Positions 1 through 14,561 of a stretch of DNA of 64,000 nt are shown here, piece after piece. The stretch's first letter is position 1; the number at the start of each line of letters is the position of its first letter. The translations under genes were made by a program, and so were the position numbers. The stretch spans positions 32,580 through 96,579 of the forward strand of contig JAADHF010000135.1 of assembly GCA_013151965.1 (NCBI GenBank), given 5' to 3'. The stretch is from Spirochaetota bacterium. GTDB taxonomy: Bacteria > Spirochaetota > Spirochaetia > SZUA-6. The notes beneath the pieces are model-generated. The model worked only from the letters and a program-made list of their open reading frames with translations. It searched no databases and had not been told where the DNA came from.

Positions 1-405
1 ACACTTATAACACAGCGAATCACCGGAATCGATCAACAGAAACTTATTATTAGAGGAATGCGGGTTGTGGCAGGAGCTGCATTTATCCAGTGTGCCGTGT
101 TTGTACTTCCGTTCGAATTTATTCTTTACATCTTCATGGCAGGTATAACATAAATCAGGTTCTTTTGCTTTTAACCTCAGGCTTCCGACCAGACCATGGC
201 GCTCGTGACAGGCATCACAATTCCCTTTCTCTACAGGCGCATGTATATTCCCTGCTTCCTCAAACTTATTAACTTCCTTTCGATGACAATCCTGGCACGA
301 TCTGGCCGGACGCCTCGGCTGATACGCACACCCGGTAATCAGGGAAGTAAGAGCTCCAACAAAGATGAGGGAAGCAAAAACCATATATTTTCGATTAATC
401 GTCAT
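1..405 (-). CDS. Multiheme c-type cytochrome, lipoprotein (N-terminal 135 aa only; continues past the window start)
   Basis: Manual minus-strand translation from ATG at 405..403 gives MTINRKYMVFASLIFVGALTSLITGC (lipobox), then CQDCH, CDACH, CYTCH, CSSCH and CYKC cut by the window edge. It is absent from the ORF track because there is no stop in the window. It starts 15 nt after the PPIase stop. Confidence 0.8.
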   Translation of the reverse strand, partial: MTINRKYMVFASLIFVGALTSLITGCAYQPRRPARSCQDCHRKEVNKFEEAGNIHAPVEKGNCDACHERHGLVGSLRLKAKEPDLCYTCHEDVKNKFERKYKHGTLDKCSSCHNPHSSNNKFLLIDSGDSLCYKC

Positions 406-420
406 ATTCCCGGTAATCTC

Positions 421-1905
421 CTATTTAATAATTTTCCTGTCGGCATAAAGACCGGCCGACAGAACGTCCTTGTAAATCTTAATTTTGGAGCCTTTTTTAA
501 GAATTTTGATCCATCTCTCTACCTCCGCTTTTCTTTTTATTTTCAGCAGAAGTTCCCTGACCTTTTCATAAACTTCCTTGAAAGGCTGAACCTTTCCTTT
601 CTTAAAATCCTCCGCTTTAAGGATATGCCAGCCGAATCTTGTTTTAACGGGACCGGAAATTTCACCCGGTTTTAAGGAAAAAGCAGCTTTCTCAAATTCC
701 GGAATTACAGTACCCCGGACTATATATCCCAGATCTCCGCCTTTAGAAGCTGAAAAGTCGATAGATTTCTCCCTTGCAAGTACCTTAAAATCCTCTCCCT
801 TCTTTAATTTTTCCAGTATATCCTCCGCCTCTTTTTTGGTGCTCACCAGAATATGTCTTATTTTGACCCTGTCCGGCTCCCTGAACTCATCCTTGTGAGA
901 TTCGTAGTAAGCCTCTGTTTCGTCCTTAGTGAGATGCACACCTTCAATTATTTCTTTATATAGTTTTTCATAGACAGCTTCCCTTTTAAAATTGCGTACA
1001 GCGGCAATGATATCCGGCAGATTATCATATCCCCGTTTCAGGGCTTCCAGCTTAAGAAGCTTCCGGGCTAAAACAAGATCACTGCTGTGATGCGGCATCA
1101 GAGGATCTTTGCCGGCAGATACGGCATATTTCTTTTTTAACTCATCTATAAATTCCTTGTACCTCTTATTTCTCTTTCTTAACTTTAGAATTCGTTTTAT
1201 ATCATTCTTTACCTTGCTAAAATCCTTTTTTTCGAAATTTTCCTTTTCATCCGCCCTCAGGACACAATAATAGCCCGGACGGACTTTAACAGGACCGCTC
1301 ACAGCCCCGGAAGAAAGAGAAAAAACCACTTTTTCGATTTCAGGGTCCAATGTGCCCCACCTTACAAAACCCAACAGTCCTCCCTCAGATGCTGAGGGAT
1401 CGATGGATTTCTCTCTTGCCAGCTCACTGAAATTCCTGCCCTTTCCAAGTTCCTTTAATACTTCTTTCGCTTCCTCCTCGGTCTTAAGAAGAATCCAGCT
1501 TACTTTAACAGCCCTTCCGTAAAACCGGGAATATATCTCTTCGATCTCCGAACCGGAAACAGTAACTTTTTTATTCACCTCATCGTTGTATAATCTGTCG
1601 ATTATTCTATCGGTTCTATACTGATCTGCCTTTCTGATTATCTCAGGGTCTTTATCCAGTCCGATCCGGTATCCCTCCTGAATAATCAGAACTTTATCTA
1701 TCTCTGCATTGAGAAACCTTAACCTGTCGGTTTCGCTTTCCAGCAGGGCCAGGTGTCCCGAATGCCGCTTCTCGAATCTTCCCTTAAGATCCTGCACTGT
1801 TATCGATTCCCCGTTTATCCTGGCAACGACCTGCTTTCCGCCTCCCGGCAAGGAGGTGCACCCGGTAAAATTCAGCAGCAGTAAGATACCCAGAAGCAGC
1901 TTCAC
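421..1905 (-). CDS. SurA/PrsA-like peptidyl-prolyl isomerase lipoprotein with two parvulin (PpiC) domains
   Basis: The N-terminus MKLLLGILLLLNFTGC has a lipobox. There are two PpiC-like segments (VKVSWILLKTEEEAKEV...GPVKVRPGYYCVLR and VKIRHILVSTKKEAEDI...GPVKTRFGWHILK). Confidence 0.85.
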   Translation of the reverse strand: MKLLLGILLLLNFTGCTSLPGGGKQVVARINGESITVQDLKGRFEKRHSGHLALLESETDRLRFLNAEIDKVLIIQEGYRIGLDKDPEIIRKADQYRTDRIIDRLYNDEVNKKVTVSGSEIEEIYSRFYGRAVKVSWILLKTEEEAKEVLKELGKGRNFSELAREKSIDPSASEGGLLGFVRWGTLDPEIEKVVFSLSSGAVSGPVKVRPGYYCVLRADEKENFEKKDFSKVKNDIKRILKLRKRNKRYKEFIDELKKKYAVSAGKDPLMPHHSSDLVLARKLLKLEALKRGYDNLPDIIAAVRNFKREAVYEKLYKEIIEGVHLTKDETEAYYESHKDEFREPDRVKIRHILVSTKKEAEDILEKLKKGEDFKVLAREKSIDFSASKGGDLGYIVRGTVIPEFEKAAFSLKPGEISGPVKTRFGWHILKAEDFKKGKVQPFKEVYEKVRELLLKIKRKAEVERWIKILKKGSKIKIYKDVLSAGLYADRKIIK

Positions 1906-1908
1906 TCT

Positions 1909-3825
1909 TTACCTCTCCCTTTCTTTTATTTTAAACTTTAAAGTCTTTATCCATTTTTCGGCATTATTGACTGCCCGCTGATCATCCGAGTTTTCCGCGA
2001 TATCTTTATATACACTCAAAGCCTTCTCTAAGGACATCTGCTGATAAAATATACCGGCCATATTCATTTTAGCCCTGTCCGCATAGGCACCGCCTAAGGA
2101 AATAAGCTTTTTAAGGGTTTTTACAGCACCCTTTAAATCACCCTGGCTCTTGTATATATTGGCTGTATGGAATAGAGACTTCTCTGTGATTACTTTATCA
2201 TTTCCGGAAGAGATTTTACTGTAAATTTTTAAAGCCTCTGTAAACCTGCCCAGTTCCTCATAGCACCTGGCCACCTTATAAATTATCCTGTCATCAGTCT
2301 TTTCCCCGGCAGCAAAACCGGCCAGTTCGATCAGAGCCTGCCTGTACTTCCCGGAGGAATAGTAAATATCCCCTAACTTAAGCCGAATATCATCCGCACT
2401 CTTACCACTCAGTTTAGATTTATCCGCTTTTAAGAAAAAATTCCGGGCCTGCCCGCGGTCTCCCAGGTTCCAATAAGACAACCCCATCCTGTACTCGATC
2501 TCTTCTATTAATAACCCTTCTGATTTTTCACCGGAAGCCTTCTGAAAAGCTGCTTGAAAGTGACTGATAGACTCTCTCCACCTTTTAAGGTTCTGTAACG
2601 ACAGACCTGCCAGGTATTCCGCCTGCCGGATATTCTTATCGGAAGGGAACTTCTTTATAAAGCCGTACAGGGTTTTCAGAGAATCCTCATAATCTTTAAG
2701 CCGGTACCGGCTTTCTCCCAGGCGCATGACCGCCTCCGGAACAAGCCGGCTTTCAGGATACTTAGTTAAATAATTCTTATAGAAGTCCAGGGCTTTACCG
2801 TATTCTCCTTTATCAAAGAACAGGTTCCCCATCTCCAGGTAAGCATCACCTGCCCACCGGCTATTAGAACCTGCGGCTGCTTTCTGCAGTTCATTAAGAG
2901 CCTTACTGTAATTCTTTAAGATCCTGTTAATGCGGCCGATCCTGAAACGGATTTCCAGTGTCCTGCTGTCCGGATATTTTATCCTGTACCTCTGCCAGGA
3001 AGCCAGAGCTTTATCCTCCATCCCCGACTTTTCATACGAAATCCCCAACATGTACATCAAATTCATAGAGGACTGCCGGTCTGCTGAACTTTTAAGGGCG
3101 TACTCCAGTTTTTGAACAGCTAAATCGTAACTGCCCCTATTGTAGTAAAGCTTTGCCAGCCTGACGCCTATATCTTCTCCGTCATCTGTTTTTACGGCAC
3201 TGCCGGATTTACCGCTGCCGCGGGGCGGATTCCGCAAAGTTAAAAGCATTTCGGCAACAGTCTTTTCTGCCAGGGCATTTACAGAACGTATTTCCCCGAT
3301 ATCTAAAATCGCCGCCCTGTCATCACCATAACGGGAGTTAACCGCCGACCAGATAACCTCACCGCTTTTTGTATCGAGCATACGGGCATCTATCCTTACT
3401 GCCGGAATTCCTTTTTTCGGGCCGCTTACTTCTTCCCCGTATTCCTCCACAGATCCCACAATGACACCACCGGCATTAAGTTCTTTCCTGAAAGCATAGA
3501 GCGTCTCGAAGTCGATCTCCCCTTTTACCTTAACTCTTTTTTCCAGGAGGAGAGCACGTGCATCACCCGGTTTTACAATCCCGAATCTTCCCATTTTGTT
3601 TAATTCAACTACAAACATATTCCTCACAACATCGCCTGCGCCTTTGCTGCCGCTTAAGTTTTCGAAAGGAAGGACAGCAATCAATTTTAAATCCTTCCAG
3701 TCTTTATCTTTCTTCATATATATACCTGGATGCATACAGGCATTCAAAAAGGACATGAGCATCACAACAAGCAAGATTCTTCCCGTCCTGATGAGGATTT
3801 TTTTTTGACTTAAAATGAGCTTCAT
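1909..3825 (-). CDS. Lipoprotein: N-terminal CsgG/LpoB/TolB-N-like domain fused to a long TPR array
   Basis: The start is re-called at the internal Met (MKLILSQKK...LMSFLNAC lipobox), 1 nt after the upstream stop at 3827..3829. The N-terminal domain IAVLPFENLSGSKGAGDVVRNMFVVELNKMGRF...VIVGSVEEYGEE...ARMLDTKSGEVIWS is paralogous to the two upstream genes. The remainder is TPR-like repeats. Confidence 0.7.
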   Translation of the reverse strand: MKLILSQKKILIRTGRILLVVMLMSFLNACMHPGIYMKKDKDWKDLKLIAVLPFENLSGSKGAGDVVRNMFVVELNKMGRFGIVKPGDARALLLEKRVKVKGEIDFETLYAFRKELNAGGVIVGSVEEYGEEVSGPKKGIPAVRIDARMLDTKSGEVIWSAVNSRYGDDRAAILDIGEIRSVNALAEKTVAEMLLTLRNPPRGSGKSGSAVKTDDGEDIGVRLAKLYYNRGSYDLAVQKLEYALKSSADRQSSMNLMYMLGISYEKSGMEDKALASWQRYRIKYPDSRTLEIRFRIGRINRILKNYSKALNELQKAAAGSNSRWAGDAYLEMGNLFFDKGEYGKALDFYKNYLTKYPESRLVPEAVMRLGESRYRLKDYEDSLKTLYGFIKKFPSDKNIRQAEYLAGLSLQNLKRWRESISHFQAAFQKASGEKSEGLLIEEIEYRMGLSYWNLGDRGQARNFFLKADKSKLSGKSADDIRLKLGDIYYSSGKYRQALIELAGFAAGEKTDDRIIYKVARCYEELGRFTEALKIYSKISSGNDKVITEKSLFHTANIYKSQGDLKGAVKTLKKLISLGGAYADRAKMNMAGIFYQQMSLEKALSVYKDIAENSDDQRAVNNAEKWIKTLKFKIKERER

Positions 3826-3826
3826 T

Positions 3827-4390
3827 CTAAAATTCCGGTATGGAAGCAACCATTTTCCTGATAATAATCCGCGACAACTCCTGGGCGGTAGAGACCTTGC
3901 CGAAACCGAAGAACCCCTTAAAATCCTCGCCCGTATATGCAAGGGAACTACTCCATAAAATATCGGTTGTGTTGAGATCGATCATAACCAGATTGATTCC
4001 CACTTCAGGGTTTTCTCCCGAGTCATACTGCTCCACACGGCCTATAATAAGCCCCTCGATTCCGAGCTCTTTCTTTAGCTTTCGTGCCAGGGAGGTCGAT
4101 ACCATGTCCAGACACCGCAGTCTTTCCATTTCCAGAAACTTCTCCACCTTTCCCGGATCTGTCAAAATATACCTGCCGGACTTTAAAAGTTCCAGCTTCA
4201 GAACATTCCCGACCTTCTCTTCCGCAAGGAAGCTGCCGCTCAAGTTTACCAATGGCATGACCCCTATTTTAATTCTCTGCACTTCCTTTTTACTTCCGGA
4301 GGAATAGGAAAACACAGGACAGACCATCAAAATTATAAACACGGCAATTGCAACCGGGATCCTTAACAGATATTTTCCCGTAAAGCACAC
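3827..4390 (-). CDS. Secreted/lipoprotein, CsgG/LpoB-like single-domain paralogue
   Basis: It has a hydrophobic N-terminus. IGVMPLVNLSGSFLAEEKVGNVLKLELLKSGRY...LIIGRVEQYDSGENPEVGINLVMIDLNTTDILWS matches the shared motif pattern of its neighbours. It lies 2 nt from the upstream gene. Confidence 0.6.
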   Translation of the reverse strand: MCFTGKYLLRIPVAIAVFIILMVCPVFSYSSGSKKEVQRIKIGVMPLVNLSGSFLAEEKVGNVLKLELLKSGRYILTDPGKVEKFLEMERLRCLDMVSTSLARKLKKELGIEGLIIGRVEQYDSGENPEVGINLVMIDLNTTDILWSSSLAYTGEDFKGFFGFGKVSTAQELSRIIIRKMVASIPEF

Positions 4391-4392
4391 AT

Positions 4393-4998
4393 CTATTTCT
4401 CCGCAGGAATTTGTATGACAAGCGACCTCACCATCTGCCTGATCACTTTTCGGGTAAGTTCGCTTATATAAGGGGTTTCACCGATTCCCAGAAAGCTGAC
4501 CGTAGATCCCCCGCCCTCCGAGTTACTGCTCATCCAGATAACGATATCTGTATTTGTATCTACCATACGCAGGTTAATGGCTACTTCGGGAAAAGATCCC
4601 GCCCCTGTAGAAACGGATTTATTGTATTCCTCGACAACACCAAAGATGATAGCCTGAACACCGAGGCTCTTTCCAAGCTTTTTAATCATGGATGCATCGA
4701 TATTATCCGGCTTATCGATCTTCATTTCACTTAACACTTTTTCCATTTCACCGAATTCCAGCACATCGAAGTAACCCAATGACAAAAGCTCGGTAACAAA
4801 TATGTCCCTGACTTTTTGTTCGGCATGCGGACTGTCCGTCAGATTTAAAAACGGCATTACCGCGACCCTTTTAATGGACAAAAAATCTGCGTTCGGATGG
4901 ACATAGGATTTGGACCGAATCCCTGCGCATCCCTCGATTATCACAAGTGAAAGAATTAACACGCTTGCAGTCAGCAGGTTTTTCATTATACTCACCAA
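4393..4998 (-). CDS. Lipoprotein, CsgG/LpoB-like single-domain paralogue
   Basis: The signal peptide and lipobox are LSLVIIEGC. VAVMPFLNLTDSPHAEQKVRDIFVTELLSLGYF...IIFGVVEEYNKS...PEVAINLRMVDTNTDIVIWM follows the same pattern as 3827..4390 and the N-terminus of 1909..3825. Confidence 0.6.
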   Translation of the reverse strand: MVSIMKNLLTASVLILSLVIIEGCAGIRSKSYVHPNADFLSIKRVAVMPFLNLTDSPHAEQKVRDIFVTELLSLGYFDVLEFGEMEKVLSEMKIDKPDNIDASMIKKLGKSLGVQAIIFGVVEEYNKSVSTGAGSFPEVAINLRMVDTNTDIVIWMSSNSEGGGSTVSFLGIGETPYISELTRKVIRQMVRSLVIQIPAEK

Positions 4999-5080: not shown

Positions 5081-5545
5081 TCAGGGGTACAACCTCCGTC
5101 CGGTGTCATGGCAGCCGCTCTGATTGCAGCTTATATAATCCCCCCCTGTGGTTAAAAATCCCATTCCCGTTCCCAGGGATGAAGAACTCTTTTCACCATA
5201 CAGTATCGTAAAATAGTACCGCTCATCGGTGTCGAGACCGGTTATAACAAAATTACCGAAACTATCCGTCTCCGCCTTAAAAAAACTCTTGTTGTCATCC
5301 GACACAGCCGTAACCACAGCTCCTTCGGCTGCAGAACTGCCGATGAGGTCTATAAAAACCGTCCCGGCAGCTGTGTCGGCCTCATACGTTCCCATATTGA
5401 ATTCTGTTCCTCTGGTTTCGTGACACGGACTATAGCAGTCATATCCGTTCTTGTGATATGAACTGTTTCCGGATGAGGTCGACTCAATATTACAGGCCGT
5501 AATAAACATTAAGCTTACTATCAGGCATCCTAAACGTATCTTCAT
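5081..5545 (-). CDS. Small lipoprotein with CX3CH and CX4CH motifs flanking a carboxypeptidase-regulatory-like beta-sandwich segment
   Basis: MKIRLGCLIVSLMFITAC has a lipobox. The motifs are CYSPCH (CX3CH) and CNQSGCH (CX4CH). The middle segment FFKAETDSFGNFVITGLDTDERYYFTILY looks like a CarboxypepD_reg-type fold. It is the first gene of the minus operon. Confidence 0.55.
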   Translation of the reverse strand: MKIRLGCLIVSLMFITACNIESTSSGNSSYHKNGYDCYSPCHETRGTEFNMGTYEADTAAGTVFIDLIGSSAAEGAVVTAVSDDNKSFFKAETDSFGNFVITGLDTDERYYFTILYGEKSSSSLGTGMGFLTTGGDYISCNQSGCHDTGRRLYP

Positions 5546-5637: not shown

Positions 5638-5743
5638 ATTCACGATAAGTAAATAAACTAAGTATATGTGTTCTTTTATAAATTAAATTACTGTTATTTT
5701 GATTAAGAATGCAGATTTATGCTTTTTAGAGGAGGGTAAGTGT

Positions 5744-6721
5744 ATGAGAAAAAAATTGATTCTTTCCATCTGTGCGGTTGTGTTTCTGGCCTATCCAGTC
5801 CTGGCGGTTCACAAAGGAGCCGGCGGACTGGACTGTTCCGGGTGCCATATTATGCACGGCAGCGTGGATGGTACGAATGTGGGCACACAGGACTATCTGC
5901 TCAGAGGCTCTACGCAGTCTCTCTGCCTTTCCTGTCATGACAGTACAGGATCTAACTATACAACCTATTCAGGTACAGTCCCGGTAGTTAAGGATGCCAC
6001 AGACAGCCCTGCAAGCGGAGACTTTGCGAATCTGGACCCGACCAACGATGCACCGGGCACCCTTAATTCGGGCAATGGCCACAACCTTGGTGAGGGCGGA
6101 AGCTCTGTAACCCCGGCAGGCGGATCTCCAATCTCCGGCTTTACATGCACTAACTGCCACGATCCCCATGGTGCGGGAGCCACGGACACCTCTACTGTAT
6201 CTGCTTACAGGAACCTTAAATTTACACCTGTGGGGGGAAGCACAACGGTATCGGTAATAAGGGCTCTGCCCCTGGAAGGTACTTTAAGCGGCGATGTGTA
6301 TCCGTTAGCTGACAATTCCTATGGTACCGCCGGAGCCGGAATAAGCAACATATCAGCCTGGTGCGGCTCCTGCCACACTAACTTCTTCGGTGATGCCAAT
6401 ACGGGAACCGGTTCCCCATTTACCAGACACCCGACATCCAATAGTACGACACTGTATACGCTTGGTGATGTCGATTTCAGCAACTATTATGCAGTTGCCG
6501 AAGGCAGCAGGTACCCTGCCGAAGATACGGCATCGAGCACTAACGCTAACTCCGGTAACGCCACCAACAAGTCCGCGGGGAACGAGGCTACCGACAGTGT
6601 TTTCTGTCTTTCCTGCCATAAGCCCCATGCCAGTGCGAATCCCGATGCTCTGCGGTGGAGCTATGCTCAGACAGCTCAATTATCCCCGGCCAGTGCCTGC
6701 CAGCAGTGCCATAACAAATAA
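5744..6721 (+). CDS. Secreted hexaheme c-type cytochrome, OmcS-like
   Basis: The start is re-called at MRKKLILSICAVVFLAYPVLA (GGAGGG RBS upstream). There are six CXXCH motifs (CSGCH, CLSCH, CTNCH, CGSCH, CLSCH, CQQCH). The mature protein has exactly 12 Cys and 12 His. The motif order and flanks (VHKGAGGLDCSGCHIMHGS, LLRGSTQSLCLSCH, CTNCHDPHG, AYRNL, WCGSCH, RHP, CLSCHKPHAS, CQQCH at the C-terminus) resemble OmcS as I recall it. Confidence 0.85.
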   Translation: MRKKLILSICAVVFLAYPVLAVHKGAGGLDCSGCHIMHGSVDGTNVGTQDYLLRGSTQSLCLSCHDSTGSNYTTYSGTVPVVKDATDSPASGDFANLDPTNDAPGTLNSGNGHNLGEGGSSVTPAGGSPISGFTCTNCHDPHGAGATDTSTVSAYRNLKFTPVGGSTTVSVIRALPLEGTLSGDVYPLADNSYGTAGAGISNISAWCGSCHTNFFGDANTGTGSPFTRHPTSNSTTLYTLGDVDFSNYYAVAEGSRYPAEDTASSTNANSGNATNKSAGNEATDSVFCLSCHKPHASANPDALRWSYAQTAQLSPASACQQCHNK

Positions 6722-6808: not shown

Positions 6809-8485
6809 ATGAGGAAGTACATATCCACAGTCCCGGCTGTTGTATTGGCAGTATTTTTAACAGCCAATATCTGTTACGGGGAGCTGCAGGGGGTTATGTC
6901 CCTGACTACACGGAGCAGGGTTGATACTGACAGTACAAAGACATGGACTTATGCTCCGTTTCTGAATATAAACTTCCAGGATCAGATAGCTGCCGGAACC
7001 AGGATTACAACAGGACTCCAGGCCCAGCTTGGCAGCTCACAGACCGAAGGGTATAAACCTTTATATACAGGAAGGCTCTTTCCGTCCTTCGATTTTACTA
7101 CGAGCAACAGCCGGTACAGTTTTAACGGCGGCTACCGTCATATCATCAATTCCGGCGAATCCGAAGTCCCCTTCCTCATAGAGGAGTTAACCCAGACACA
7201 ATTATTTTATTCAGGCTTGTCGCTTCCGCTTTCGGATCTTCCTTCTTTTAACCTGCAGGGCAGGCAAATTCATAATTTCAGCCTGAACGGGACAAAAAAT
7301 GATTTAAGGGATTCGATAGGCTTAAACTCCGGTTACTCTGCAGGCTTATTCGATATTTCGGTTAATGCAGGGTGGAATAGATATAAGGACTACATCAATC
7401 TATCAGGAGGAATTCCATACGAAGAGAACAACTTTAATGAAACAGTAAATACAAACATAAATTATCAGCCGGCTTCCAGGATAACAGTCAAAGGGAAAGC
7501 AGGCTTAAGCGGGTATCAGAGCAGACGCGGATTTGCAAATAACACCGATCTAAACAGAAACAGCAGTTACTACACCGATTCCACATTATTACTCAAGTTT
7601 ACGGACAGTGTCTCGACAACCGGAAATCTCTCCTGGAACCGAACGGACAGAGAAACGGAAACCGGAAGTACGGTTACAAAACTTCCGCCTGTGGAATCCA
7701 TAAGGGGCGGGGGAGGGATTTATCTTAAACTCTACAAGTTTCTTTTTTCCAATATCAGCTACCAGGGACAGTGGCAGATCGGAGAGAATGCAGCTGTCAA
7801 TACAGCAGGTATCGGATTGGATTTTATTCCTTTTAAAACCATGAAAACATCCCTTGTCTATGGTCTTTCGGAAACAAGCAGGGACTCCGGGAAACTTACA
7901 AGGTCGGACAAGATTTCCTTTTCTGCAAAGGGAAAGGTCTATGACAGGGTAGATATAAACTCCTTCTTGCAGTACAATCGTATCGATGACTATAAGCAGG
8001 ATGTAATCATGACACTCTGGATGGCGGGTTCCAAAATTAAATCCAGACTGATCGATGATTGGCTGGTTAAAAGCATGGACGTCCAGGCGGGATACAACAG
8101 GATGTGGCAGATAATCGATCTCGGAGGGGAAAGAGAGGTTTTAATTATCGATGTTACAAATATTTCCGTACATTCCAGGATGACAAGGGTAATCGGGATC
8201 TCGGGGAAATGGAGCTGGAATAATAAACCCGGCGGGCTTAGTTTAACCCAGCAGTATGCCATGGAGTGGCTTCCGTTAAAAAAAATGCGGCTTAGCGTGG
8301 GGTATGGGATCACCGGCAGCACGGATAAAAGTATAAAGGAGGATATATCCGCCAGAGCAAATTTATCACTCCCGAAGAATTATACACTGTCGGCTGCTTT
8401 CGGCAGCGTTCTTAACAGGGATAATCCGGAGTCTCCCAGGAACGGATCGTACACATTTTCGGCAACAATCTCGGCGAGTTTTTAA
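6809..8485 (+). CDS. Outer-membrane beta-barrel protein (porin-like), unknown family
   Basis: It has a signal peptide (MRKYISTVPAVVLAVFLTANICYG), many short alternating amphipathic strands rich in Y/G/S/N/T, and a C-terminal ...YTFSATISASF ending in Phe, which is an OMP beta-signal. It sits between two multiheme cytochrome genes. Confidence 0.65.
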   Translation: MRKYISTVPAVVLAVFLTANICYGELQGVMSLTTRSRVDTDSTKTWTYAPFLNINFQDQIAAGTRITTGLQAQLGSSQTEGYKPLYTGRLFPSFDFTTSNSRYSFNGGYRHIINSGESEVPFLIEELTQTQLFYSGLSLPLSDLPSFNLQGRQIHNFSLNGTKNDLRDSIGLNSGYSAGLFDISVNAGWNRYKDYINLSGGIPYEENNFNETVNTNINYQPASRITVKGKAGLSGYQSRRGFANNTDLNRNSSYYTDSTLLLKFTDSVSTTGNLSWNRTDRETETGSTVTKLPPVESIRGGGGIYLKLYKFLFSNISYQGQWQIGENAAVNTAGIGLDFIPFKTMKTSLVYGLSETSRDSGKLTRSDKISFSAKGKVYDRVDINSFLQYNRIDDYKQDVIMTLWMAGSKIKSRLIDDWLVKSMDVQAGYNRMWQIIDLGGEREVLIIDVTNISVHSRMTRVIGISGKWSWNNKPGGLSLTQQYAMEWLPLKKMRLSVGYGITGSTDKSIKEDISARANLSLPKNYTLSAAFGSVLNRDNPESPRNGSYTFSATISASF

Positions 8486-8492
8486 AAATATT

Positions 8493-9824
8493 ATGATTGA
8501 TAAAAGATTTTTAATAACTTCAGTTTTGATTATTCTGATATCCGGTCTCTCACCGGTGATATACGGGGATGATGTATTTACTCAGACCGAACACGGAGGA
8601 ACAAACATAAATTCCGATGCCTATGTCCTCGCAGGTTCCTGCGGAACCTGTCATACACAGCACAACAGCCAGGACGGTGCGCCTGTATCCGGAAGCGGAC
8701 CGTTTAAATATCTTCTTAACGGCGCCAATAATAACAGCTTCTGCACTAACTGCCACCTGGACAGTTCGATAGGTACTCCTCCGGGAAGGCCCCCTTTTGA
8801 AAAACTATGGGCCGGTGAAACAAAATATAACGCATCGGCACACGGCACAAGCCTCTTTAAGACTAATCCGGACACGGGATTCGATCTGCCGCTCTGCCTG
8901 GCATGTCATGATCCCCACGGCAGAGGAACGGGTACTCCTTACCCCGCTCTTCGTGCCAATAATGAGGAAAACCTCTGCTATGCCTGCCACGACAGCAATG
9001 GGCCCGCTCAGAATGATATAAAATCAAAGATGCAGGGAACCGCTACATCCACAAGCCCCGTATCCGGAAGTTCGGCCAAAATTAATACCCGCCATGATAT
9101 AAGTCTCTCCGATCAAAACTGGAGCGGAGCAAAGATAGAATGCAAAGACTGCCACAACCCTCATCTTAACAACAGTAGTTATAACGGAGTGGATAAATCC
9201 AGGGTGCGTGATCCGGCCGTCGATCCTTCTACGGCTGCAGGCGCAGCAAACTTTATCGACACCTACAATGTAAATGACCCTGACAGGCCCGGAGATTTAG
9301 ACCCCAACATTTTACCGGAATCTCCTGCCAGTCCGGTACCGGATTATATAGATTTCTGCCTGGTGTGCCACGACGGCAGCTACCCTTCCTGGATTAATCC
9401 CGGAACCAACCCGCCGGCTGTTATAAACTGGGAATCCACAAGCGGAAATTATCACGGCGGCAAGTACGGAGGCGGGAACTCCGGCCAGGGTTACCTTAAA
9501 AGCCGGACAGTCGGGGATCCGGGTTATGTGGCAGGCTACACAGGAGCGGATTACCAGAATCCGGGCTCATATACTGCTGCAGATTCTTATGCTCCGATGC
9601 TCTGCACGGACTGTCATGATCCCCACGGAGTTAACAACAATCTTTTTATGATTAAAAAAACAATCAACGGAAAATCGGGCATAACCTGGACGAACGGCGG
9701 AGTAATATATTACAAAATGTGTACCGCCTGTCACAAAATGACAGGCAAAAAGCACACTATGAAATATGGTGAATCATCGACCTGCAGCCGGCAGTTTCAC
9801 TCACATACAGGAAGCGACTTTTAA
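8493..9824 (+). CDS. Secreted octaheme c-type cytochrome (N-terminus paralogous to the hexaheme)
   Basis: It has a signal peptide and eight CXXCH motifs (CGTCH, CTNCH, CLACH, CYACH, CKDCH, CLVCH, CTDCH, CTACH). The N-terminal TEHGG...CGTCHTQHNS...YLLNGANNNSFCTNCH parallels the first two heme sites of 5744..6721. Confidence 0.85.
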   Translation: MIDKRFLITSVLIILISGLSPVIYGDDVFTQTEHGGTNINSDAYVLAGSCGTCHTQHNSQDGAPVSGSGPFKYLLNGANNNSFCTNCHLDSSIGTPPGRPPFEKLWAGETKYNASAHGTSLFKTNPDTGFDLPLCLACHDPHGRGTGTPYPALRANNEENLCYACHDSNGPAQNDIKSKMQGTATSTSPVSGSSAKINTRHDISLSDQNWSGAKIECKDCHNPHLNNSSYNGVDKSRVRDPAVDPSTAAGAANFIDTYNVNDPDRPGDLDPNILPESPASPVPDYIDFCLVCHDGSYPSWINPGTNPPAVINWESTSGNYHGGKYGGGNSGQGYLKSRTVGDPGYVAGYTGADYQNPGSYTAADSYAPMLCTDCHDPHGVNNNLFMIKKTINGKSGITWTNGGVIYYKMCTACHKMTGKKHTMKYGESSTCSRQFHSHTGSDF

Positions 9825-9855
9825 CAGCATGTTCCCCGCGCGGAGAGGCGGTATA

Positions 9856-10335
9856 ATGGCCGTACCGGACAGAAAATCTATAATAACCGGTCTTATCTTT
9901 ATCCTGGTAATCGCAGGCACAGGAACTTTATATATAATTTATTCAGCGAATCTAAGATCCGGACAGGCAGCCGGCCATTTGAGCCGGGGGATAGGATACA
10001 TAAAAAACGGAAAGAATATAGAAGCGGTAACCGAACTAGAAAAAGCTATTTCCATAAAACCCGGCCTGTGGAAGGCATATTACTACCTCGGAGGAATCTA
10101 CCTTAAGAAGAACATGCTCTCCGAGGCCGGAAAAGAATTCGCAAAGGCCCTGAAACTGAAACCCGCCATGCCGGAAATTTATAACGCTCTGGGAATCGTT
10201 TATTTTAAAATGGGTAAAGTGGATGCGGCAACTGCCTATTTCCAGGCATCCCTAAGACTGAATCCCTTAAACGAACAGGTAAACGCTATCCTGGAAACAA
10301 TAAACGGCAGGGGAATGAAACAGACAAAAAAGTGA
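9856..10335 (+). CDS. Membrane-anchored TPR protein
   Basis: MAVPDRKSIITGLIFILVIAGTGTLYIIY is an N-terminal TM segment, followed by 3-4 TPR motifs (KAYYYLGGIYLKKNMLSEAGKEFAKALKLKP...). An alternative start is at 9829. Its stop overlaps the GTG start of ccsB. Confidence 0.7.
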   Translation: MAVPDRKSIITGLIFILVIAGTGTLYIIYSANLRSGQAAGHLSRGIGYIKNGKNIEAVTELEKAISIKPGLWKAYYYLGGIYLKKNMLSEAGKEFAKALKLKPAMPEIYNALGIVYFKMGKVDAATAYFQASLRLNPLNEQVNAILETINGRGMKQTKK

Positions 10336-11675
10336 AGGTATATAAATTTTTAATATCACCGAAGTTTGTCATTCTCCTTCTTCTTGCTATATCCGTCCTC
10401 TCGATACTGGGAATATTTATACCCCAGGGAGAGGGAGATTTATTTTATGCCAAACACTACGGGCTGGGAAAGGCAGTGCTCTTTTTAGGATTAAACAACC
10501 TGTACAATCTCTGGTTTTATAAACTGTTGTACTTGTTCCTCGGCATCGATCTGATCCTGTGCTCGGTGAAAAGAATAGGATACCTGCGTAAGATATTTTC
10601 TAATCCTGAGGAAGAATTAAATCTGAAACCGAACCGTTATGAGAAAAAAATAAGGCTTGACGGCGGTATTCAGGATACGGCTGTTAAGATTTGCAGGCTC
10701 CTTAAACACTCGTTCTACAGAGTTAAAAGCAAAAGAATCGATAACGGAAATAAAACATCCATTCTCGCAGGCAGAGGGAAAATAAGCACCTTTGGAAGTA
10801 CCATAGTCCATGGCGGTATTTTAATCATAATATTTTACACTTTTTTTTGGGGCACATCCGGATACGGGCGCTATGTTAAAATCGTGGAGGGAAACAGTTA
10901 TGTCGAACCCTCTGAAAATTTTCTGGTAAGAGTGGACAAGATAAGACTGGACTACTACAAACCTGGAAAAGATGTGTCTTCTGCCGGTGAGTTTCGATTA
11001 AAGAATGCCCAGGCGACGCTGTCTGTTTTAAAAGACGGTAGTTCTGTGCAGACAACCAGAACACTTAGAATCGGCGAAAGATTAAAATACAAAGGCATAA
11101 ACTTTAAACTGGATTACAAAGGATTCGGATGGGCATATAGAATACTGCTTACCAATTCGTCCGGCTGGCAATGGACCCTCTCCGTCTGGCCATGGAACCC
11201 GGTAATTTCCCTGTCAAAATTAAACTGGATGATATACCTGCATAATCTTTATCCTGATTTTGCACTGGATGATAAAGGAAATCCTTATTCCAAAACTCCC
11301 TACCTCCGAAATCCTGCAGCTAAAATCTGGATTCAGCAGGGAACAAAGAAACCGGAGCTTATCGGATGGTTAAAGTCCGATGCACCCTTGAAGTTTAAAG
11401 GTTATACTCTGAAGATGGTCGATCTTCGGCCCTACGCTTCCGTTTATGTCAGTAAAAAGCCCGGTATTCCATTTATCTGGGCCGGCTTCGGATTAATTAT
11501 TGCCGGCCTGTTATTGATATACGGCCTGGATTACAGAATAATCAGGATAATAGTTTCAACCGGCAGAGGGGCAGAAGACATACTGATAACCGGTACAAGT
11601 ACAAAAACGGGCAACAATCTCAAAAAGGATATCGAGACTATTGCTGCCGGAATAGAAGCCGGAAAGGAGTTATGA
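10332..11675 (+). CDS. ccsB: Cytochrome c biogenesis protein CcsB/ResB (System II)
   Basis: The GTG start overlaps the upstream stop. The ResB-like N-terminus is FLISPKFVILLLLAISVLSILGIFIPQG. It has a large soluble loop and a C-terminal TM (GIPFIWAGFGLIIAGLLLIYG). It is immediately upstream of ccsA with an ATGA overlap. Confidence 0.85.
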   Translation: MKVYKFLISPKFVILLLLAISVLSILGIFIPQGEGDLFYAKHYGLGKAVLFLGLNNLYNLWFYKLLYLFLGIDLILCSVKRIGYLRKIFSNPEEELNLKPNRYEKKIRLDGGIQDTAVKICRLLKHSFYRVKSKRIDNGNKTSILAGRGKISTFGSTIVHGGILIIIFYTFFWGTSGYGRYVKIVEGNSYVEPSENFLVRVDKIRLDYYKPGKDVSSAGEFRLKNAQATLSVLKDGSSVQTTRTLRIGERLKYKGINFKLDYKGFGWAYRILLTNSSGWQWTLSVWPWNPVISLSKLNWMIYLHNLYPDFALDDKGNPYSKTPYLRNPAAKIWIQQGTKKPELIGWLKSDAPLKFKGYTLKMVDLRPYASVYVSKKPGIPFIWAGFGLIIAGLLLIYGLDYRIIRIIVSTGRGAEDILITGTSTKTGNNLKKDIETIAAGIEAGKEL

Positions 11676-12475
11676 TGGGTATTGAATCAATTTTTTTAAG
11701 TATAGCCTTCGCTTCATATTTTTTAGCTGCAATCGCTTATGTTATATTTTTAGTTACAAAATGGGAACCGGCCGGGAAAACCGGCAGCCTTATCGCCTTT
11801 GCAGGACTGATCTGCCACACTATTGCCCTTGTGTCCCGTATAATCATAGCGAAACGCCTCGTGGGCTACAACTTTTACGAATACATGTCCGTATTCGCCT
11901 GGGGTACAGTCCTGGTATACCTGATTGCGGAAAGGAAAACAAAGCTCAGAATTATCGGCGTATTTGTACTTCCTGTAGTAATCCTGCTTCTGGGCTATGC
12001 CTCCGTACTGCCGAAAAATATAACACCCCTTGTTCCGGCTTTAAGGAGTTACTGGCTGCAGATCCACATTATTACTACGGTAGTATCATACAGCTCATTT
12101 ACTCTCTCCTTTGGTGCAGGGATAATATACCTTATAAGAAAAAAACTGCCTTTTAAGGCAGAAACCGGTGCACTGGAGATAGTTATATCCAGGGCTATAA
12201 TTTTCGGTTTTCCCTTTCTGACCATCGGCATCCTTTCCGGCGCAATCTGGGCTCAATATATCTGGAACAGGGCATGGAGCTGGGACCCCAAGGAAACCTC
12301 CTCCCTGGTTACCTGGTTGGTCTATGCCGCTTATCTCCATACCAGGCTTGCAAGGGGATGGAGCGGGAAACGTGCTGCAATTTTAAGTATCATAGGCTTT
12401 GCCTGCGTTATTTTTACCTACCTGGGGGTGGACCTTCTTGTTCCCAGGGCTCATACCTTCCTTTTTAACAAATAA
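11672..12475 (+). CDS. ccsA: Cytochrome c-type biogenesis protein CcsA/ResC (heme handling, WWD motif)
   Basis: It is polytopic. The Trp-rich heme-handling motif is GAIWAQYIWNRAWSWDPKETSSLVTWLVYAAYLH. Confidence 0.9.
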   Translation: MMGIESIFLSIAFASYFLAAIAYVIFLVTKWEPAGKTGSLIAFAGLICHTIALVSRIIIAKRLVGYNFYEYMSVFAWGTVLVYLIAERKTKLRIIGVFVLPVVILLLGYASVLPKNITPLVPALRSYWLQIHIITTVVSYSSFTLSFGAGIIYLIRKKLPFKAETGALEIVISRAIIFGFPFLTIGILSGAIWAQYIWNRAWSWDPKETSSLVTWLVYAAYLHTRLARGWSGKRAAILSIIGFACVIFTYLGVDLLVPRAHTFLFNK

Positions 12476-12574
12476 TGAATAACTACATTGAGCAATTATT
12501 ACCTTTATTTTTACTTCTTAAAAGATTACACTGATACGTACAATGACCGTTAAAATCATATTGCCGGAGCTGTT

Positions 12575-13576
12575 ATGACAAAAGATCCCGCCGGACAAAA
12601 AGCAGTGCTTCTTAAGCGAGCCGATATTTTTTCATCCCTTATTCCCCATGAGATAGAAGTTATTGCCTGGAACAGTGATTTTTACGACTATAAAACCGGT
12701 GACCCGGTTTTTTCCAGGGGGGACCCCGGCAATACCCTCTATATCGTAGAATCCGGCGAAATCGTAGTTCAGAAGCAGGATGAGTCCGGCCGGAAAACCG
12801 ATATAGCCCGTTTTGTCCAGGGCAACTGTTTCGGAGAACTCGATCTGTTCACCGGAACATCCAGAATTGCTTCCGCTTTCGCATCTGTCGAAACACGGCT
12901 TTTGGAATTTCCCAAATCCGGCATAGAATTTACAGCGATTCTCGATAAACATCCGGCTCTGTCTGCCCGGATCCTCCACAAAATTCTAGCGGAGATTGCC
13001 GTGCGAATCCGCAGGGCCAACACCCTCATCAAAGAGAATTCTCCCCTGGTGCAGGAAATGAGAAGGCAGGTGTATAGAGACAAGCTTACAGGGTTATTTA
13101 ATCGAACCTATCTCTTAGAAAAAATAAGGGAACTTATCGATAAAAACAGTTCCGGCTTTTCTCTTCTGATAACAAAACCGGACAATTTTAAGGCTTTAAA
13201 CGACACTTACGGCCACGAAGCGGGAGACACGGCTATCAGCATTATGGCAAGGGGATTACGGGATTTTATCGGGGATGACAACAGGACAGCAAGGTACAAG
13301 GGTAATGCCATGGCAGTACTTATTCCGGGGGGTACAAAAGAGGAAGCTTACAACCAGGCTCTGCGTATCCGGGAATTCATGAACAACCTCGATGTAACCG
13401 GAGCAACGAAAGGAAAGGAATTCCGCATTACCGCCAGCACCGGCATCGCATGTTTCCCTGACCACGGCATTAACGCTGAAGATCTTGTATTTAAAACTCA
13501 TGAGCTTTCTCTTGCAGGCAGACGCAGGGGGGGAAATCTCATCCTGTTTCCGGAAGATGCCGGGGAGCGGAAATGA
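12575..13576 (+). CDS. Cyclic-nucleotide-binding domain protein with a degenerate GGDEF domain
   Basis: The cNMP-binding signature is GNCFGELDLFTGTSRIASAFA. The GGDEF fold is present (LTGLFNRTYL, FKALNDTYGHEAGD), but the active-site pentapeptide is KGNAM (ARYKGNAMAVL) and no RxxD I-site is in register. Confidence 0.8.
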   Translation: MTKDPAGQKAVLLKRADIFSSLIPHEIEVIAWNSDFYDYKTGDPVFSRGDPGNTLYIVESGEIVVQKQDESGRKTDIARFVQGNCFGELDLFTGTSRIASAFASVETRLLEFPKSGIEFTAILDKHPALSARILHKILAEIAVRIRRANTLIKENSPLVQEMRRQVYRDKLTGLFNRTYLLEKIRELIDKNSSGFSLLITKPDNFKALNDTYGHEAGDTAISIMARGLRDFIGDDNRTARYKGNAMAVLIPGGTKEEAYNQALRIREFMNNLDVTGATKGKEFRITASTGIACFPDHGINAEDLVFKTHELSLAGRRRGGNLILFPEDAGERK

Positions 13577-14550
13577 AAAGGACTCCCGTTGATGTACTTA
13601 GATCGATCGAAATTCTCTCTTCTCTTTCCCGGGAAGAACTGGATTCGCTTTATTCACTTATGAACACCGAAGAATACCTAAAAGGGCAAACCCTTTTCAA
13701 CGAAGGCGATAACGGCGAAATCATGTATATCATACTTTCCGGATCGGTTTCCATATCCGTAAATCTGCCGGACGGGAAAGTGCTGGAGATCGCAGAGATT
13801 ACAGAGGGTAATTTCTTCGGGGAGATGTCCATTTTCGACAGTGCGGCAAGGTCCGCTACATGCTCTCCTAAATGCGACACAAAAGTACTCAGCCTTAAAG
13901 CAGGTGATTTTTACAAATTCATAAAAAACAAACCGGAGGCCGGTATAAATATCATGCGCCGTATGCTGAATATTACCACCATGCGTCTTGAAAAAACCGG
14001 TGCATTTCTGTCGGATATGGTCACCTGGGGAGAACAGGCAAGGACCCGGGCAATTACCGATGATTTTACAGGGCTGTATAACCGCCGGTTTCTCGATGAG
14101 GCAATAAAAGACCGTATTACCGAGGCAATGGATAAAAGCCTTCCTCTCTCCATTGTCATGATCGATCTGGATCATTTCGGAACATTGAACAATGAATACG
14201 GACAGGATATGGGAGACAGGGTAATCCTGGCAATTGTCCCGATTTTCAGAAAACTGTTTAGAAAGGAAGATATTCTTGCCCGGTACGGAGGTGATGAGTT
14301 TACCTTTCTTCTGCCCGGAACTACGGGCGCAGAAGCCCGGGATATCTGTTCGAAGCTGGTAAGGGAAGTCCGGAAAATCGACCTGCTTAAGAATCTCGAC
14401 GGATCGCTGAAGAAAGTTACTGCCAGTATCGGCATCGCATGTTTTCCTGATCATGCCGACTCGGCTTCCCGGATCAAAGAAAGGGCCGACCAGGCACTCT
14501 ACAAGGCAAAGGAAGCCGGGCGGGATACCGCAGTTCTCTGGACAAACTAA
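13573..14550 (+). CDS. Cyclic-nucleotide-binding domain diguanylate cyclase (intact GGDEF and I-site)
   Basis: The cNMP-binding signature is GNFFGEMSIFDSAARSAT. The GGDEF domain has RKED (RxxD) five residues before ARYGGDEF. It has an ATGA overlap with the upstream paralogue. Confidence 0.85.
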   Translation: MKRTPVDVLRSIEILSSLSREELDSLYSLMNTEEYLKGQTLFNEGDNGEIMYIILSGSVSISVNLPDGKVLEIAEITEGNFFGEMSIFDSAARSATCSPKCDTKVLSLKAGDFYKFIKNKPEAGINIMRRMLNITTMRLEKTGAFLSDMVTWGEQARTRAITDDFTGLYNRRFLDEAIKDRITEAMDKSLPLSIVMIDLDHFGTLNNEYGQDMGDRVILAIVPIFRKLFRKEDILARYGGDEFTFLLPGTTGAEARDICSKLVREVRKIDLLKNLDGSLKKVTASIGIACFPDHADSASRIKERADQALYKAKEAGRDTAVLWTN

Positions 14551-14561
14551 AGGGAGGGTAC

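Follow-up and report, generated by a model that had tools for sequence, protein, structure and literature searches.

Three tandem PelC-like genes in a Spirochaetota contig as predicted counterparts of OscF and OscG in a variant osc block

The window, that is, the whole 64-kb stretch of DNA analyzed here, carried three consecutive minus-strand genes that we call g1, g2, and g3, together with genes for multiheme cytochromes and their maturation. The features at this end of the window were as follows.

1–405, minus strand: 5' part of a multiheme cytochrome gene running off the window edge, with four CxxCH motifs in 135 aa
421–1905, minus strand: parvulin-type PPIase of the OscH type, a lipoprotein with two rotamase domains (151 bits) and a weak SurA-like N-terminus
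1909–3825, minus strand: g3, 638 aa from ATG 3825
3211–3825, minus strand: N-terminal part of g3, with a signal peptide, the lipobox FLNAC, and a PelC-like domain
1909–3210, minus strand: C-terminal part of g3, a TPR array of about 430 aa of the TPR_6 / BamD-YfiO / CpoB-like class
3827–4390, minus strand: g2, 187 aa, GTG start, a single PelC-like domain; signal peptide present, lipobox atypical
4393–4998, minus strand: g1, 201 aa from TTG, a single-domain PelC-like, predicted OscF-type lipoprotein
5081–5545, minus strand: 154-aa lipoprotein, the apparent first gene of the minus-strand operon
5699–6721, plus strand: hexaheme c-type cytochrome of the OmcS family, 340 aa, six CxxCH motifs, divergent from g1–g3
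6809–8485, plus strand: secreted 558-aa protein without a Pfam match, candidate outer-membrane beta-barrel
8493–9824, plus strand: octaheme c-type cytochrome, 443 aa, eight CxxCH motifs, Paired_CXXCH_1 70 bits
9766–12475, plus strand: small TPR protein, then ResB (131 bits) and CcsA (Cytochrom_C_asm 165 bits) of System II cytochrome c maturation

A domain of approximately 170 aa was common to g1, g2, and g3, with 29–35% identity over 149–188 aa in pairwise BLASTP. The E-values, calculated for a nominal database of 1e8 residues, were 2e-25 for g1 and g2, 4e-22 for g1 and the N-terminal domain of g3 (g3N), and 6e-13 for g2 and g3N. Similarity so far beyond chance indicated that the three are real paralogues, as the initial annotation had proposed from a shared motif, which appeared in the alignment as VAVMPFLNLT, IGVMPLVNLS, and IAVLPFENLS in the three genes. 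The fusion of the third copy to a TPR array was likewise borne out: residues ~206–638 of g3 matched TPR_6 (107 bits), TPR_2 (97 bits), and BamD/YfiO-like profiles, and the full-length architecture was kept in the homologues P0145 (84% identity) and P0162 (44% over 615 aa). The list of open reading frames had g3 starting at TTG 3942; because this start overlaps g2 and both homologues begin at the signal peptide, we set the start at ATG 3825. For g1, ATG 4986 is a more likely start than the TTG.

The junctions were read as TAG-at-GTG (2 nt) between g1 and g2 and TAG-a-ATG (1 nt) between g2 and g3, in agreement with the gaps of 1–2 nt reported earlier, and g3 was followed by the PPIase gene after TAA-aga-GTG (3 nt). 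By direct reading of the sequence, Shine-Dalgarno-like GGAG or AGGGAGAGG lay inside the upstream genes at these junctions. The three genes are probably co-transcribed, with translational coupling, together with the genes for the OscH-type PPIase and the 26-heme cytochrome. When the lipoboxes were inspected by eye, those of g3 (FLNAC), the PPIase (FTGC), and the 154-aa protein (ITAC) were good, whereas those of g1 (IEGC; IGGC in its 93% homologue) and g2 (LMVC) were atypical, which qualifies the original lipoprotein label for the three genes.

The domain had been described as CsgG/LpoB-like, and Pfam agreed at the level of the superfamily. On g1, CsgG scored 47.4 bits (cut-off 20.8), matching profile positions 28–142 of 210 only, and GNA1162-like scored 27.8 bits, also above cut-off, while LpoB, FlgO, and TolB_N remained below theirs. 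The CsgG profile gave 20.6 bits on g3, just under the cut-off, and no match on g2. With an AF2 model of g1 (pLDDT 84.6), the best Foldseek matches were to PelC (5t0z, 5t10, and 5t11) and the PelBC complex (9h80), with E-values of 6e-12 to 3e-9 and TM scores of 0.72–0.83; the corresponding values for CsgG (4uv3 and 4uv2) were E ~1e-6, TM ~0.4, and an rmsd of 9–14 Å. A profile of 98 family sequences retrieved Pseudomonas aeruginosa PelC (9h80_C) with an E-value of 1.4e-9, the alignment running from the signal peptide to residue 155; CsgG chains were absent from its matches up to an E-value of 10. These comparisons indicated that the domain is a member of the CsgG/LpoB/TolB_N superfamily, with PelC, and not CsgG as first supposed, being its nearest solved relative.

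GNA1162 / DUF799 (PDB ID: 4hrv; Foldseek E 6e-10) and LpoB, the latter as a weak match below cut-offs, have the same fold and occur in a genomic context different from that of g1–g3; to our knowledge, neither is linked to cytochromes. The resemblance to PelC goes beyond the best profile and structure match, since PelC is also a lipoprotein of comparably small size whose gene lies beside that of an outer-membrane beta-barrel, and its apparatus includes TPRs. Twelve copies of the PelC lipoprotein form a ring at the periplasmic edge of the PelB barrel (PMC12141448). This ring is a homo-dodecamer from one gene, in contrast to the three paralogues of the window; the TPRs reside on the barrel protein PelB in Pel, but on the candidate ring subunit g3 here; and the cargo is a cationic polysaccharide in place of the presumed multiheme protein. 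The sequence identity of PelC to the window domain was only 15–19%, and no pel-type genes were detected among the neighbors within ~12 kb (cytochromes, PPIase, ResB, and CcsA) or among the further window ORFs scanned.

To compare the three genes with those of OmcS-homologue loci, HMMs of an F type and a G type were made from 43 single-domain and 42 two-domain proteins, respectively, of these loci. g1 scored 157 bits with the F-type HMM, against 88 and 82 bits with the two G-type HMMs. g2 scored 100.5 bits with the HMM of the G N-terminal domain, against 83 and 73 bits, and its best BLAST matches were G N-terminal domains. For g3N, the G C-terminal and F-type HMMs tied at ~116 bits, and the best BLAST match was the G C-terminal domain of locus L005 (101 bits, 39% identity). 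The scores pointed to a collinear orthology, in which g1 corresponds to OscF, g2 to the N-terminal domain of OscG, and g3 to the C-terminal domain of OscG plus the TPR array. By homology and gene order, the block with g1–g3 is a variant of the osc block GSU2500–2493 of Geobacter, a module that has already been published and is not new. The G. sulfurreducens locus itself was not among the genome-scan matches (the best was 69% identical), and loci of Citrifermentans bremense, Geomonas, and Geomobilimonas served as proxies; the letters E (barrel), F (single domain), and G (double domain) were deduced from the gene order and cited descriptions.

The eight-gene block GSU2500–2493 lies downstream of GSU2501 and includes GSU2495, with 26 hemes (PMC12977616), and GSU2497 is annotated as a lipoprotein (PMC3495685). 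According to citations in PMC13194489 and PMC12977616, Shen et al. 2025 (Cell Chem Biol 32:239) proposed OscE, OscF, and OscG for secretion of OmcS nanowires, and the account of the operon in PMC13194489 gives OscH a role in folding, OscE/F/G in secretion, and OscD in morphology. Where later papers refer to the secretion role, it is worded as "proposed," "suggested," or "still speculative." The earlier statement that this fold has no established export role other than in curli is out of date, in view of the PelC ring on the PelB barrel and the published OscF/OscG. OscF and OscG (GSU2498/GSU2497) are like g1–g3 in the domain family and in having three domain copies in total, but the window has three separate genes where osc loci have one single and one fused double gene, and the ~430-aa TPR array of its third copy had no ORF match at E < 1e-5 in 77 OmcS loci.

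In the 77 OmcS-homologue loci and 80 metagenome loci, a block recurred that consisted of a hexaheme cytochrome, a beta-propeller, a barrel of ~740 aa, one single-domain PelC-like gene, one fused two-domain PelC-like gene, a PPIase, a 26-heme cytochrome, and a 16-heme cytochrome. PelC-like genes were present in 35 of the 41 OmcS-homologue loci having full 10-kb flanks. When the block was approached from the lipoprotein side in the 80 metagenome loci, with loci of sufficient flank as the denominators, a barrel was encoded upstream of the PelC-like genes in 45/50 loci and a propeller near them in 18/18; an upstream ORF had at least 5 hemes in 17/18. Downstream, a PPIase was found in 31/36 loci and an ORF with at least 20 hemes in 19/22. 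Exactly three PelC-like domains were encoded in 38 of 49 loci. The close subfamily occurred almost invariably in such a cytochrome/barrel/PPIase block, in Desulfuromonadia, Myxococcota, and Nitrospirota.

The genes downstream of g3 followed the osc order, a PPIase and then a 26-heme cytochrome. In phmmer searches, the window PPIase matched those after the PelC-like genes of loci L005 (E 2.5e-54) and L031 (E 1e-22), and the fragment at 1–405 matched the 26-heme proteins of the same loci (E 1.4e-23 and 4e-19, respectively) and Paired_CXXCH_1 (83 bits). These matches identify the fragment, at the sequence level, as the counterpart of the 26-heme OscI/GSU2495-type gene. The nearby hexaheme cytochrome matched OmcS (6ef8) with an E-value of 3.3e-8, collinear over two stretches, and a Geomonas OmcS homologue with an E-value of 4.5e-16, and it kept the CH-x-M-H motif holding the His residue aligned with His16 of OmcS; it is shorter than the hexahemes of osc loci (340 versus ~430 aa). 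The suggested link between the triplet and this cytochrome was thus strengthened by the OmcS match and by the closest relatives of g1, which were almost always located in multiheme clusters; for the latter reason, the triplet cannot be called common in genomes without multiheme cytochromes. The OmcS-like hexaheme is probably the cargo or a partner of g1–g3.

The 558-aa protein was the sole ORF of the window, out of 182, to be matched by an HMM of 36 Osc-type barrels (E 7e-7, 21 bits). Its N and C parts were collinear with the HMM, positions 245–500 being skipped, and hhalign gave a probability of 69% (E 4.6e-5). The C-terminus, ...FSATISASF, resembled a beta-signal when read directly, and the AF2 model had a pLDDT of 27.5, too low to show the fold. 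The protein is probably an outer-membrane barrel that may correspond to the OscE-type barrel of ~740 aa minus the central insert, an assignment that is weak at the sequence level. It is encoded on the strand opposite to g1–g3, whereas the barrel gene is directly upstream in canonical loci. The hexaheme gene is also on the opposite strand, and it is the 154-aa lipoprotein gene that lies directly upstream of g1. An HMM of 46 OscD-type beta-propellers found nothing below E 1 in the 64-kb window. Because a propeller is absent and the only barrel candidate is weak, insert-less, and on the other strand, the window cluster was regarded as a variant and not as a complete or canonical osc block, and, being incomplete, it may work differently.

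We propose, with a probability of approximately 0.6, that g1–g3 encode outer-membrane-anchored periplasmic proteins of the PelC fold, counterparts of OscF and OscG, that form a PelC-style ring under a barrel for export or mounting of the OmcS-like hexaheme. In the lineage of the window, OscG would have been split into two genes, the second half gaining the TPR array of ~430 aa. By analogy with PelBC, the three paralogous domains would form a hetero-oligomeric ring, for example 4 × 3 = 12, although a 9-mer would likewise suit three paralogues. The ring may be docked under an outer-membrane barrel, which is OscE in Geobacter and would here probably be the 558-aa protein. Ring and barrel together would provide a vestibule or platform through which the OmcS-like hexaheme is exported or on which it is mounted, with the TPR arm extending into the periplasm to hold a partner, which could be the PPIase chaperone or the cargo, among others; in this model, the transmembrane pore would not be made by the lipoproteins. 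Whereas ring formation, stoichiometry, barrel docking, and the TPR role are drawn from this analogy, the export function is taken from later accounts of Shen et al. 2025. A further-reaching version is tentative, and we consider it less probable than not: a PelBC-like machine would export or mount OmcS-type cytochrome filaments, with a hetero-dodecameric ring of three PelC paralogues (4 × 3) on a dedicated barrel, so that the architecture of a polysaccharide exporter would have been repurposed for a folded heme-loaded polymer, and here the TPR arm would functionally replace the missing OscD propeller and perhaps also the barrel insert.

The initial annotation had offered a different reading, in which the heme protein would be exported through a transmembrane pore formed by a CsgG-like hetero-oligomeric ring of g1–g3. 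CsgG contributes two transmembrane beta-hairpins per protomer to a 36-stranded barrel and is a 9-mer, which suits three paralogues, and the superfamily alpha/beta core, the Pfam score of 47 bits on g1, and the presence of CsgG among the Foldseek matches are in line with this reading. The Pfam match, however, is partial, the family profile recovers no CsgG chain, and the TM score of ~0.4 falls well below that of PelC. Moreover, the mature domain has ~170 aa against ~260 aa in CsgG, about 90 residues fewer, and the g1 model lacks long hairpins, with only a 12-residue loop (residues 126–137) in their place; a CsgG-type transmembrane barrel made by these proteins alone would therefore be impossible. 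With a separate large barrel gene adjoining in 45 of 50 loci, and none of the curli genes csgE, csgF, csgA, and csgB among the scanned neighbors, we consider a self-contained pore very unlikely. It is still more improbable that g1–g3 are generic envelope lipoproteins, for example regulators of peptidoglycan synthesis resembling LpoB or proteins of the DUF799/GNA1162 type, functionally unlinked to the adjoining cytochrome genes. Such a reading could draw on the LpoB and GNA1162-like Pfam matches and on the size of the wider family, which at E ≤ 1e-3 had 10,906 representatives, including true PelC and other contexts, but it conflicts with the near-constant cytochrome/barrel/PPIase setting of the close subfamily and with the spacings of 1–3 nt in the window.

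An electron conduit is a more serious alternative, although we judge it rather unlikely. In this reading, a porin-cytochrome complex would be made up of the barrel and the 26-heme and 16-heme cytochromes. The ring of PelC-like proteins, TPR arm included, would be a scaffold that keeps the periplasmic cytochrome at the barrel opening, and the OmcS-like protein would be charged, not exported, through the conduit. The 26-heme and 16-heme genes are kept directly after the PPIase gene in 19/22 loci, a 26-heme-like gene is retained in the window, and the secretion mechanism is called "still speculative" in later papers. On the other hand, published genetics, as reported by others, connect OmcS secretion with OscE/F/G and folding with OscH, and a dedicated PPIase chaperone is a better fit to an export or assembly role than to one in electron transfer. 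Conduit and secretion roles are not mutually exclusive.

In the literature, accounts of how heme-loaded cytochrome nanowires traverse the outer membrane and become attached to it are still termed speculative. Assigning the OscF/OscG-type proteins to the PelC family speaks against a CsgG-like self-contained pore and yields a specific structural model open to testing, in which lipoproteins form a ring beneath a barrel as they do in PelBC. The window cluster is a lineage-specific variant of the known system published in 2025, and with its split OscG, TPR arm, short candidate barrel, and lack of a propeller, it is a natural variant that indicates which components of the machine can be dispensed with or exchanged and could guide reconstruction of a minimal system for heterologous nanowire production.

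A pair of PelC-like genes also adjoined a barrel gene in a different context, in line with the proposed arrangement: locus L105 had two single-domain PelC-like genes followed by a BBP2_2 porin gene. The 154-aa lipoprotein of the window, for which no counterpart was found in the OmcS-homologue and metagenome loci compared, had a CarboxypepD_reg-like beta-sandwich match below cut-off and contained the motifs CX3CH and CX4CH.

The three paralogous putative lipoprotein genes (g1, g2, and g3) were located in a single minus-strand operon, the layout of which was obtained from the ORF listing and by direct reading of the gene junctions.

Genes of the minus-strand operon
5081–5545, minus strand, 154-aa lipoprotein, first gene of the operon
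4393–4998, minus strand, g1, likely start at ATG 4986
3827–4390, minus strand, g2, GTG start 2 nt past the g1 stop
1909–3825, minus strand, g3, ATG start 1 nt past the g2 stop
421–1905, minus strand, parvulin-type PPIase, GTG start 3 nt past the g3 stop
1–405, minus strand, truncated multihaem ORF extending past the left edge of the window

A start of g3 at TTG 3942 was dropped, ATG 3825 being preferred. The g1 and g2 products aligned over their full length with each other and with the N-terminal ~200 residues of the g3 product (g3N), with a motif common to all three and pairwise identities of 29–35% (BLASTP, E = 6e-13 to 2e-25 with a nominal database of 1e8 residues), and the remaining ~430 aa of g3 formed a TPR array. 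The initial annotation, which described three tandem paralogues sharing a motif, gaps of 1–2 nt, and a third copy fused to TPRs, was therefore confirmed in full. A protein homologue of g3 (P0162), 44% identical over 615 aa, had the same full-length fusion, and the TPR fusion is therefore a conserved lineage variant and not an assembly artefact; the TPR region had no counterpart at E < 1e-5 in the OmcS-homologue loci described below.

The same annotation assigned the shared domain to the CsgG/LpoB fold and proposed the trio as an export pore for the neighbouring hexahaem cytochrome. At the level of the superfamily the assignment held: g1 matched Pfam CsgG (47 bits) and GNA1162-like (27.8 bits) above the cut-offs, and LpoB, FlgO, and TolB_N below them; the CsgG score of g3 was slightly under the Pfam cut-off, and g2 gave weak LpoB and TolB_N matches and nothing else. 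However, CsgG was not the nearest relative. A profile of the three paralogues matched PelC chains at E = 5e-7, and a 98-sequence family profile matched Pseudomonas aeruginosa PelC of the PelBC complex (9h80_C) at E = 1.4e-9, whereas it matched no CsgG chain up to E = 10. In a structure search, the AlphaFold2 model of g1 (pLDDT 84.6) matched PelC of G. metallireducens, P. phytofirmans, and P. aeruginosa with E of ~1e-11 and TM of 0.72–0.83, GNA1162 ranked next, and CsgG gave E of ~1e-6, TM of ~0.4, and rmsd of 9–14 Å. The closest solved relative within the superfamily is PelC, and the fold of the trio should be called PelC-like, not CsgG-like. What defines CsgG as a channel, its type of membrane barrel, has no equivalent in the window proteins; the domain measures ~170 aa in its mature form, and long hairpins were absent from the g1 model. 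As modelled, the window proteins by themselves cannot be the pore. The idea of a ring-forming lipoprotein fold serving the hexahaem was a good instinct, with PelC in the place of CsgG.

For the osc ("omcS companion") operon of Geobacter sulfurreducens, PMC13194489 assigns folding to OscH, secretion to OscE/F/G, and morphology to OscD, and equates oscC, oscI, and oscJ with GSU2501, GSU2495, and GSU2494. PMC12977616 ties an eight-gene block, GSU2500–GSU2493, downstream of GSU2501, to nanowire maturation and secretion and describes GSU2495 as a 26-haem protein; PMC3495685 gives "lipoprotein" as the annotation of GSU2497. With 179 aa of G. sulfurreducens OmcS, taken from a PDB alignment, as the query (best match 69% identity), 77 OmcS-homologue loci from GTDB species genomes, covering Geomonas, Citrifermentans bremense, Geomobilimonas, Anaeromyxobacter, Nitrospirota, and others, were sampled and annotated with purpose-built HMMs. 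Their recurrent gene order opened with one or more OmcS-like hexahaems, followed by a beta-propeller of the Lactonase/YNCE type (~480 aa) and a protein of ~740 aa whose ends were OMP-like and whose centre gave a weak F5/8-type-C match. Next came two PelC-like genes, the first with one domain (~195 aa) and the second with two (~370–430 aa), and the order closed with a PPIase of ~600 aa, a cytochrome with 26 haems (~657 aa), and another with 16. Taking the PPIase (OscH, GSU2496) and the 26-haem GSU2495 as fixed points in this order, we deduced that the two-domain protein is GSU2497 (OscG), the single-domain protein GSU2498 (OscF), the barrel GSU2499 (OscE), and the propeller GSU2500 (OscD). Apparent barrel-PelC "fusion" ORFs of 816–939 aa in three loci (L008, L021, and L025) were rejected as open-frame run-ons in high-GC DNA because the barrel sits in a different frame. 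The OscE-type barrels of ~740 aa (12192–14450 in locus L057 and equivalents) hold a central insert of ~250 residues with a weak F5/8-type-C (discoidin-like) match (E = 0.005).

The window cluster was compared with this block gene by gene. Its PPIase matched the PPIases of OmcS loci at E = 2.5e-54. The truncated ORF at the edge, 135 aa with four CxxCH motifs, matched 26-haem (GSU2495/OscI-type) proteins at E = 1.4e-23, which in osc loci directly follow the PPIase, and since the fragment runs off the window, the cluster extends beyond it. Separate HMMs were used for the single-domain proteins (F) and for the N- and C-terminal domains of the two-domain proteins (G-N and G-C).

HMM scores of the three paralogous domains (bits)
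g1: F 157, G-N 82, G-C 88
g2: F 73, G-N 100.5, G-C 83
g3N: F 116, G-N 86, G-C 116

The best BLAST match of g3N was a G-C domain (101 bits, 39% identity). In their order, the three domains thus correspond to OscF plus OscG. Judged by sequence comparison, OscG is here split into two genes, and its second half is lengthened by the TPRs. Two genes lie divergently from the operon:

5699–6721, plus strand, OmcS-like hexahaem cytochrome
6809–8485, plus strand, 558-aa protein, candidate barrel

The 558-aa protein had a signal peptide and gave no Pfam match; hydrophobic residues alternate in its C-terminus (...FSATISASF), the last residue of which is Phe. An HMM of 36 OscE-type barrels matched it at E = 7e-7 as the sole hit among 182 ORFs of the window, with residues 37–222 aligned to HMM positions 49–245 and residues 328–532 to 501–703, the central insert being skipped; the discoidin-like insert was absent from this protein. 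Comparison by hhalign gave a probability of 69% (E = 4.6e-5). Only two close homologues were found in a set of 5.8 billion proteins, one of which also adjoins a multihaem gene, and the AF2 model from these three near-identical sequences was unusable (pLDDT 27.5). These matches suggest that the 558-aa protein is probably the OscE counterpart. An HMM search found no OscD-like propeller in the 64-kb window. The hexahaem matched OmcS (6ef8) at E = 3.3e-8; it is ~90 aa shorter but keeps CH-x-M-H, the second His of which aligns with OmcS His16, reportedly an inter-subunit haem ligand in work of Wang and colleagues from 2019. The aligned His is compatible with filament formation.

The window carries a diverged form of the osc nanowire-assembly cluster, which was published in 2025 (Shen et al. 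2025). New in it are the division of OscG between two genes, the fusion to TPRs, the short candidate barrel, the missing propeller, and the divergent layout.

Starting from OmcS, PelC-like genes were present in 35 of the 41 loci whose flanks were complete. Starting from the lipoproteins, 80 loci were retrieved from metagenomes with the family alignment as the query. Counted wherever the flank was long enough, a barrel lay upstream in 45 of 50 of these loci and an ORF of at least 5 haems in 17 of 18; on the downstream side, 31 of 36 had a PPIase and 19 of 22 an ORF of at least 20 haems. A propeller was present in 18 of 18, and 38 of 49 had exactly three copies of the domain.

Four individually inspected homologues gave the same picture. 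In this close subfamily the triplet was not common without multihaem cytochromes, as 24 of 25 loci of at least 8 kb had an ORF of at least 5 haems. The wider superfamily (10,906 cluster representatives at E ≤ 1e-3, 417 at 1e-30) takes in true PelC and other contexts. An osc-like locus of a Nitrospirae MAG (GCA_013388455.1; L005, 8783–11041) had four PelC-like domains (1 + 1 + 2), which shows that the number of copies can vary. Two metagenome contigs (L105, 2881–5525; L132, 2477–3690) each had two tandem single-domain PelC-like genes, with no cytochrome, PPIase, or Osc-type barrel within the few kb of available flank; in L105 a 376-aa BBP2_2 beta-barrel porin followed the two genes, which is another PelC-like/barrel pairing.

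As described in PMC12141448, PelC is a lipoprotein, twelve copies of which form a periplasmic ring on the PelB beta-barrel, held via barrel-rim contacts and acyl chains. Because the fold is PelC-like, a barrel usually adjoins, mostly three domain copies are present, and membrane hairpins are lacking, the best-supported reading is that the window proteins would form a hetero-oligomeric PelC-type ring beneath the barrel and help to export or mount the OmcS-like cytochrome, with the PPIase as the presumed chaperone in the periplasm and the TPR arm as a presumed adaptor. We infer ring formation, its stoichiometry, barrel docking, and the TPR role. A serious rival is that barrel, ring, and the 26- and 16-haem cytochromes constitute an electron conduit, instead of or besides a secretion device. 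For the PelC-type ring beneath a barrel, the explicit analogy with PelBC may be new.

The 154-aa lipoprotein had a lipobox (ITAC) and a sub-threshold CarboxypepD_reg-like beta-sandwich between CX3CH (CYSPCH) and CX4CH (CNQSGCH) motifs, which may be atypical haem sites; it had no counterpart in 157 related loci (E < 1e-5 for the OmcS-homologue loci). Directly downstream of the hexahaem and candidate barrel, 8493–12475 (plus strand) encodes an octahaem cytochrome, a small TPR protein, and System II maturation proteins ResB and CcsA, and thus cytochrome maturation genes adjoin cytochrome genes. Also adjoining the cytochrome cluster, 12575–15740 (plus strand) encodes two tandem paralogous cNMP-binding + GGDEF proteins and then a DHH-family phosphoesterase, which could represent cyclic-nucleotide regulation. 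Large ORFs at 24122–26461 (plus strand, 779 aa) and 39335–40828 (minus strand, 497 aa) had no Pfam match at E ≤ 1e-5. At 34745–35764 (minus strand), cyclophilin-type and FKBP-type PPIase domains are fused in one protein, and at 17408–21057 (minus strand) a LolA-like protein lies beside a 970-aa MMPL/RND-type transporter, near an AraC-type regulator at 21212–21874.
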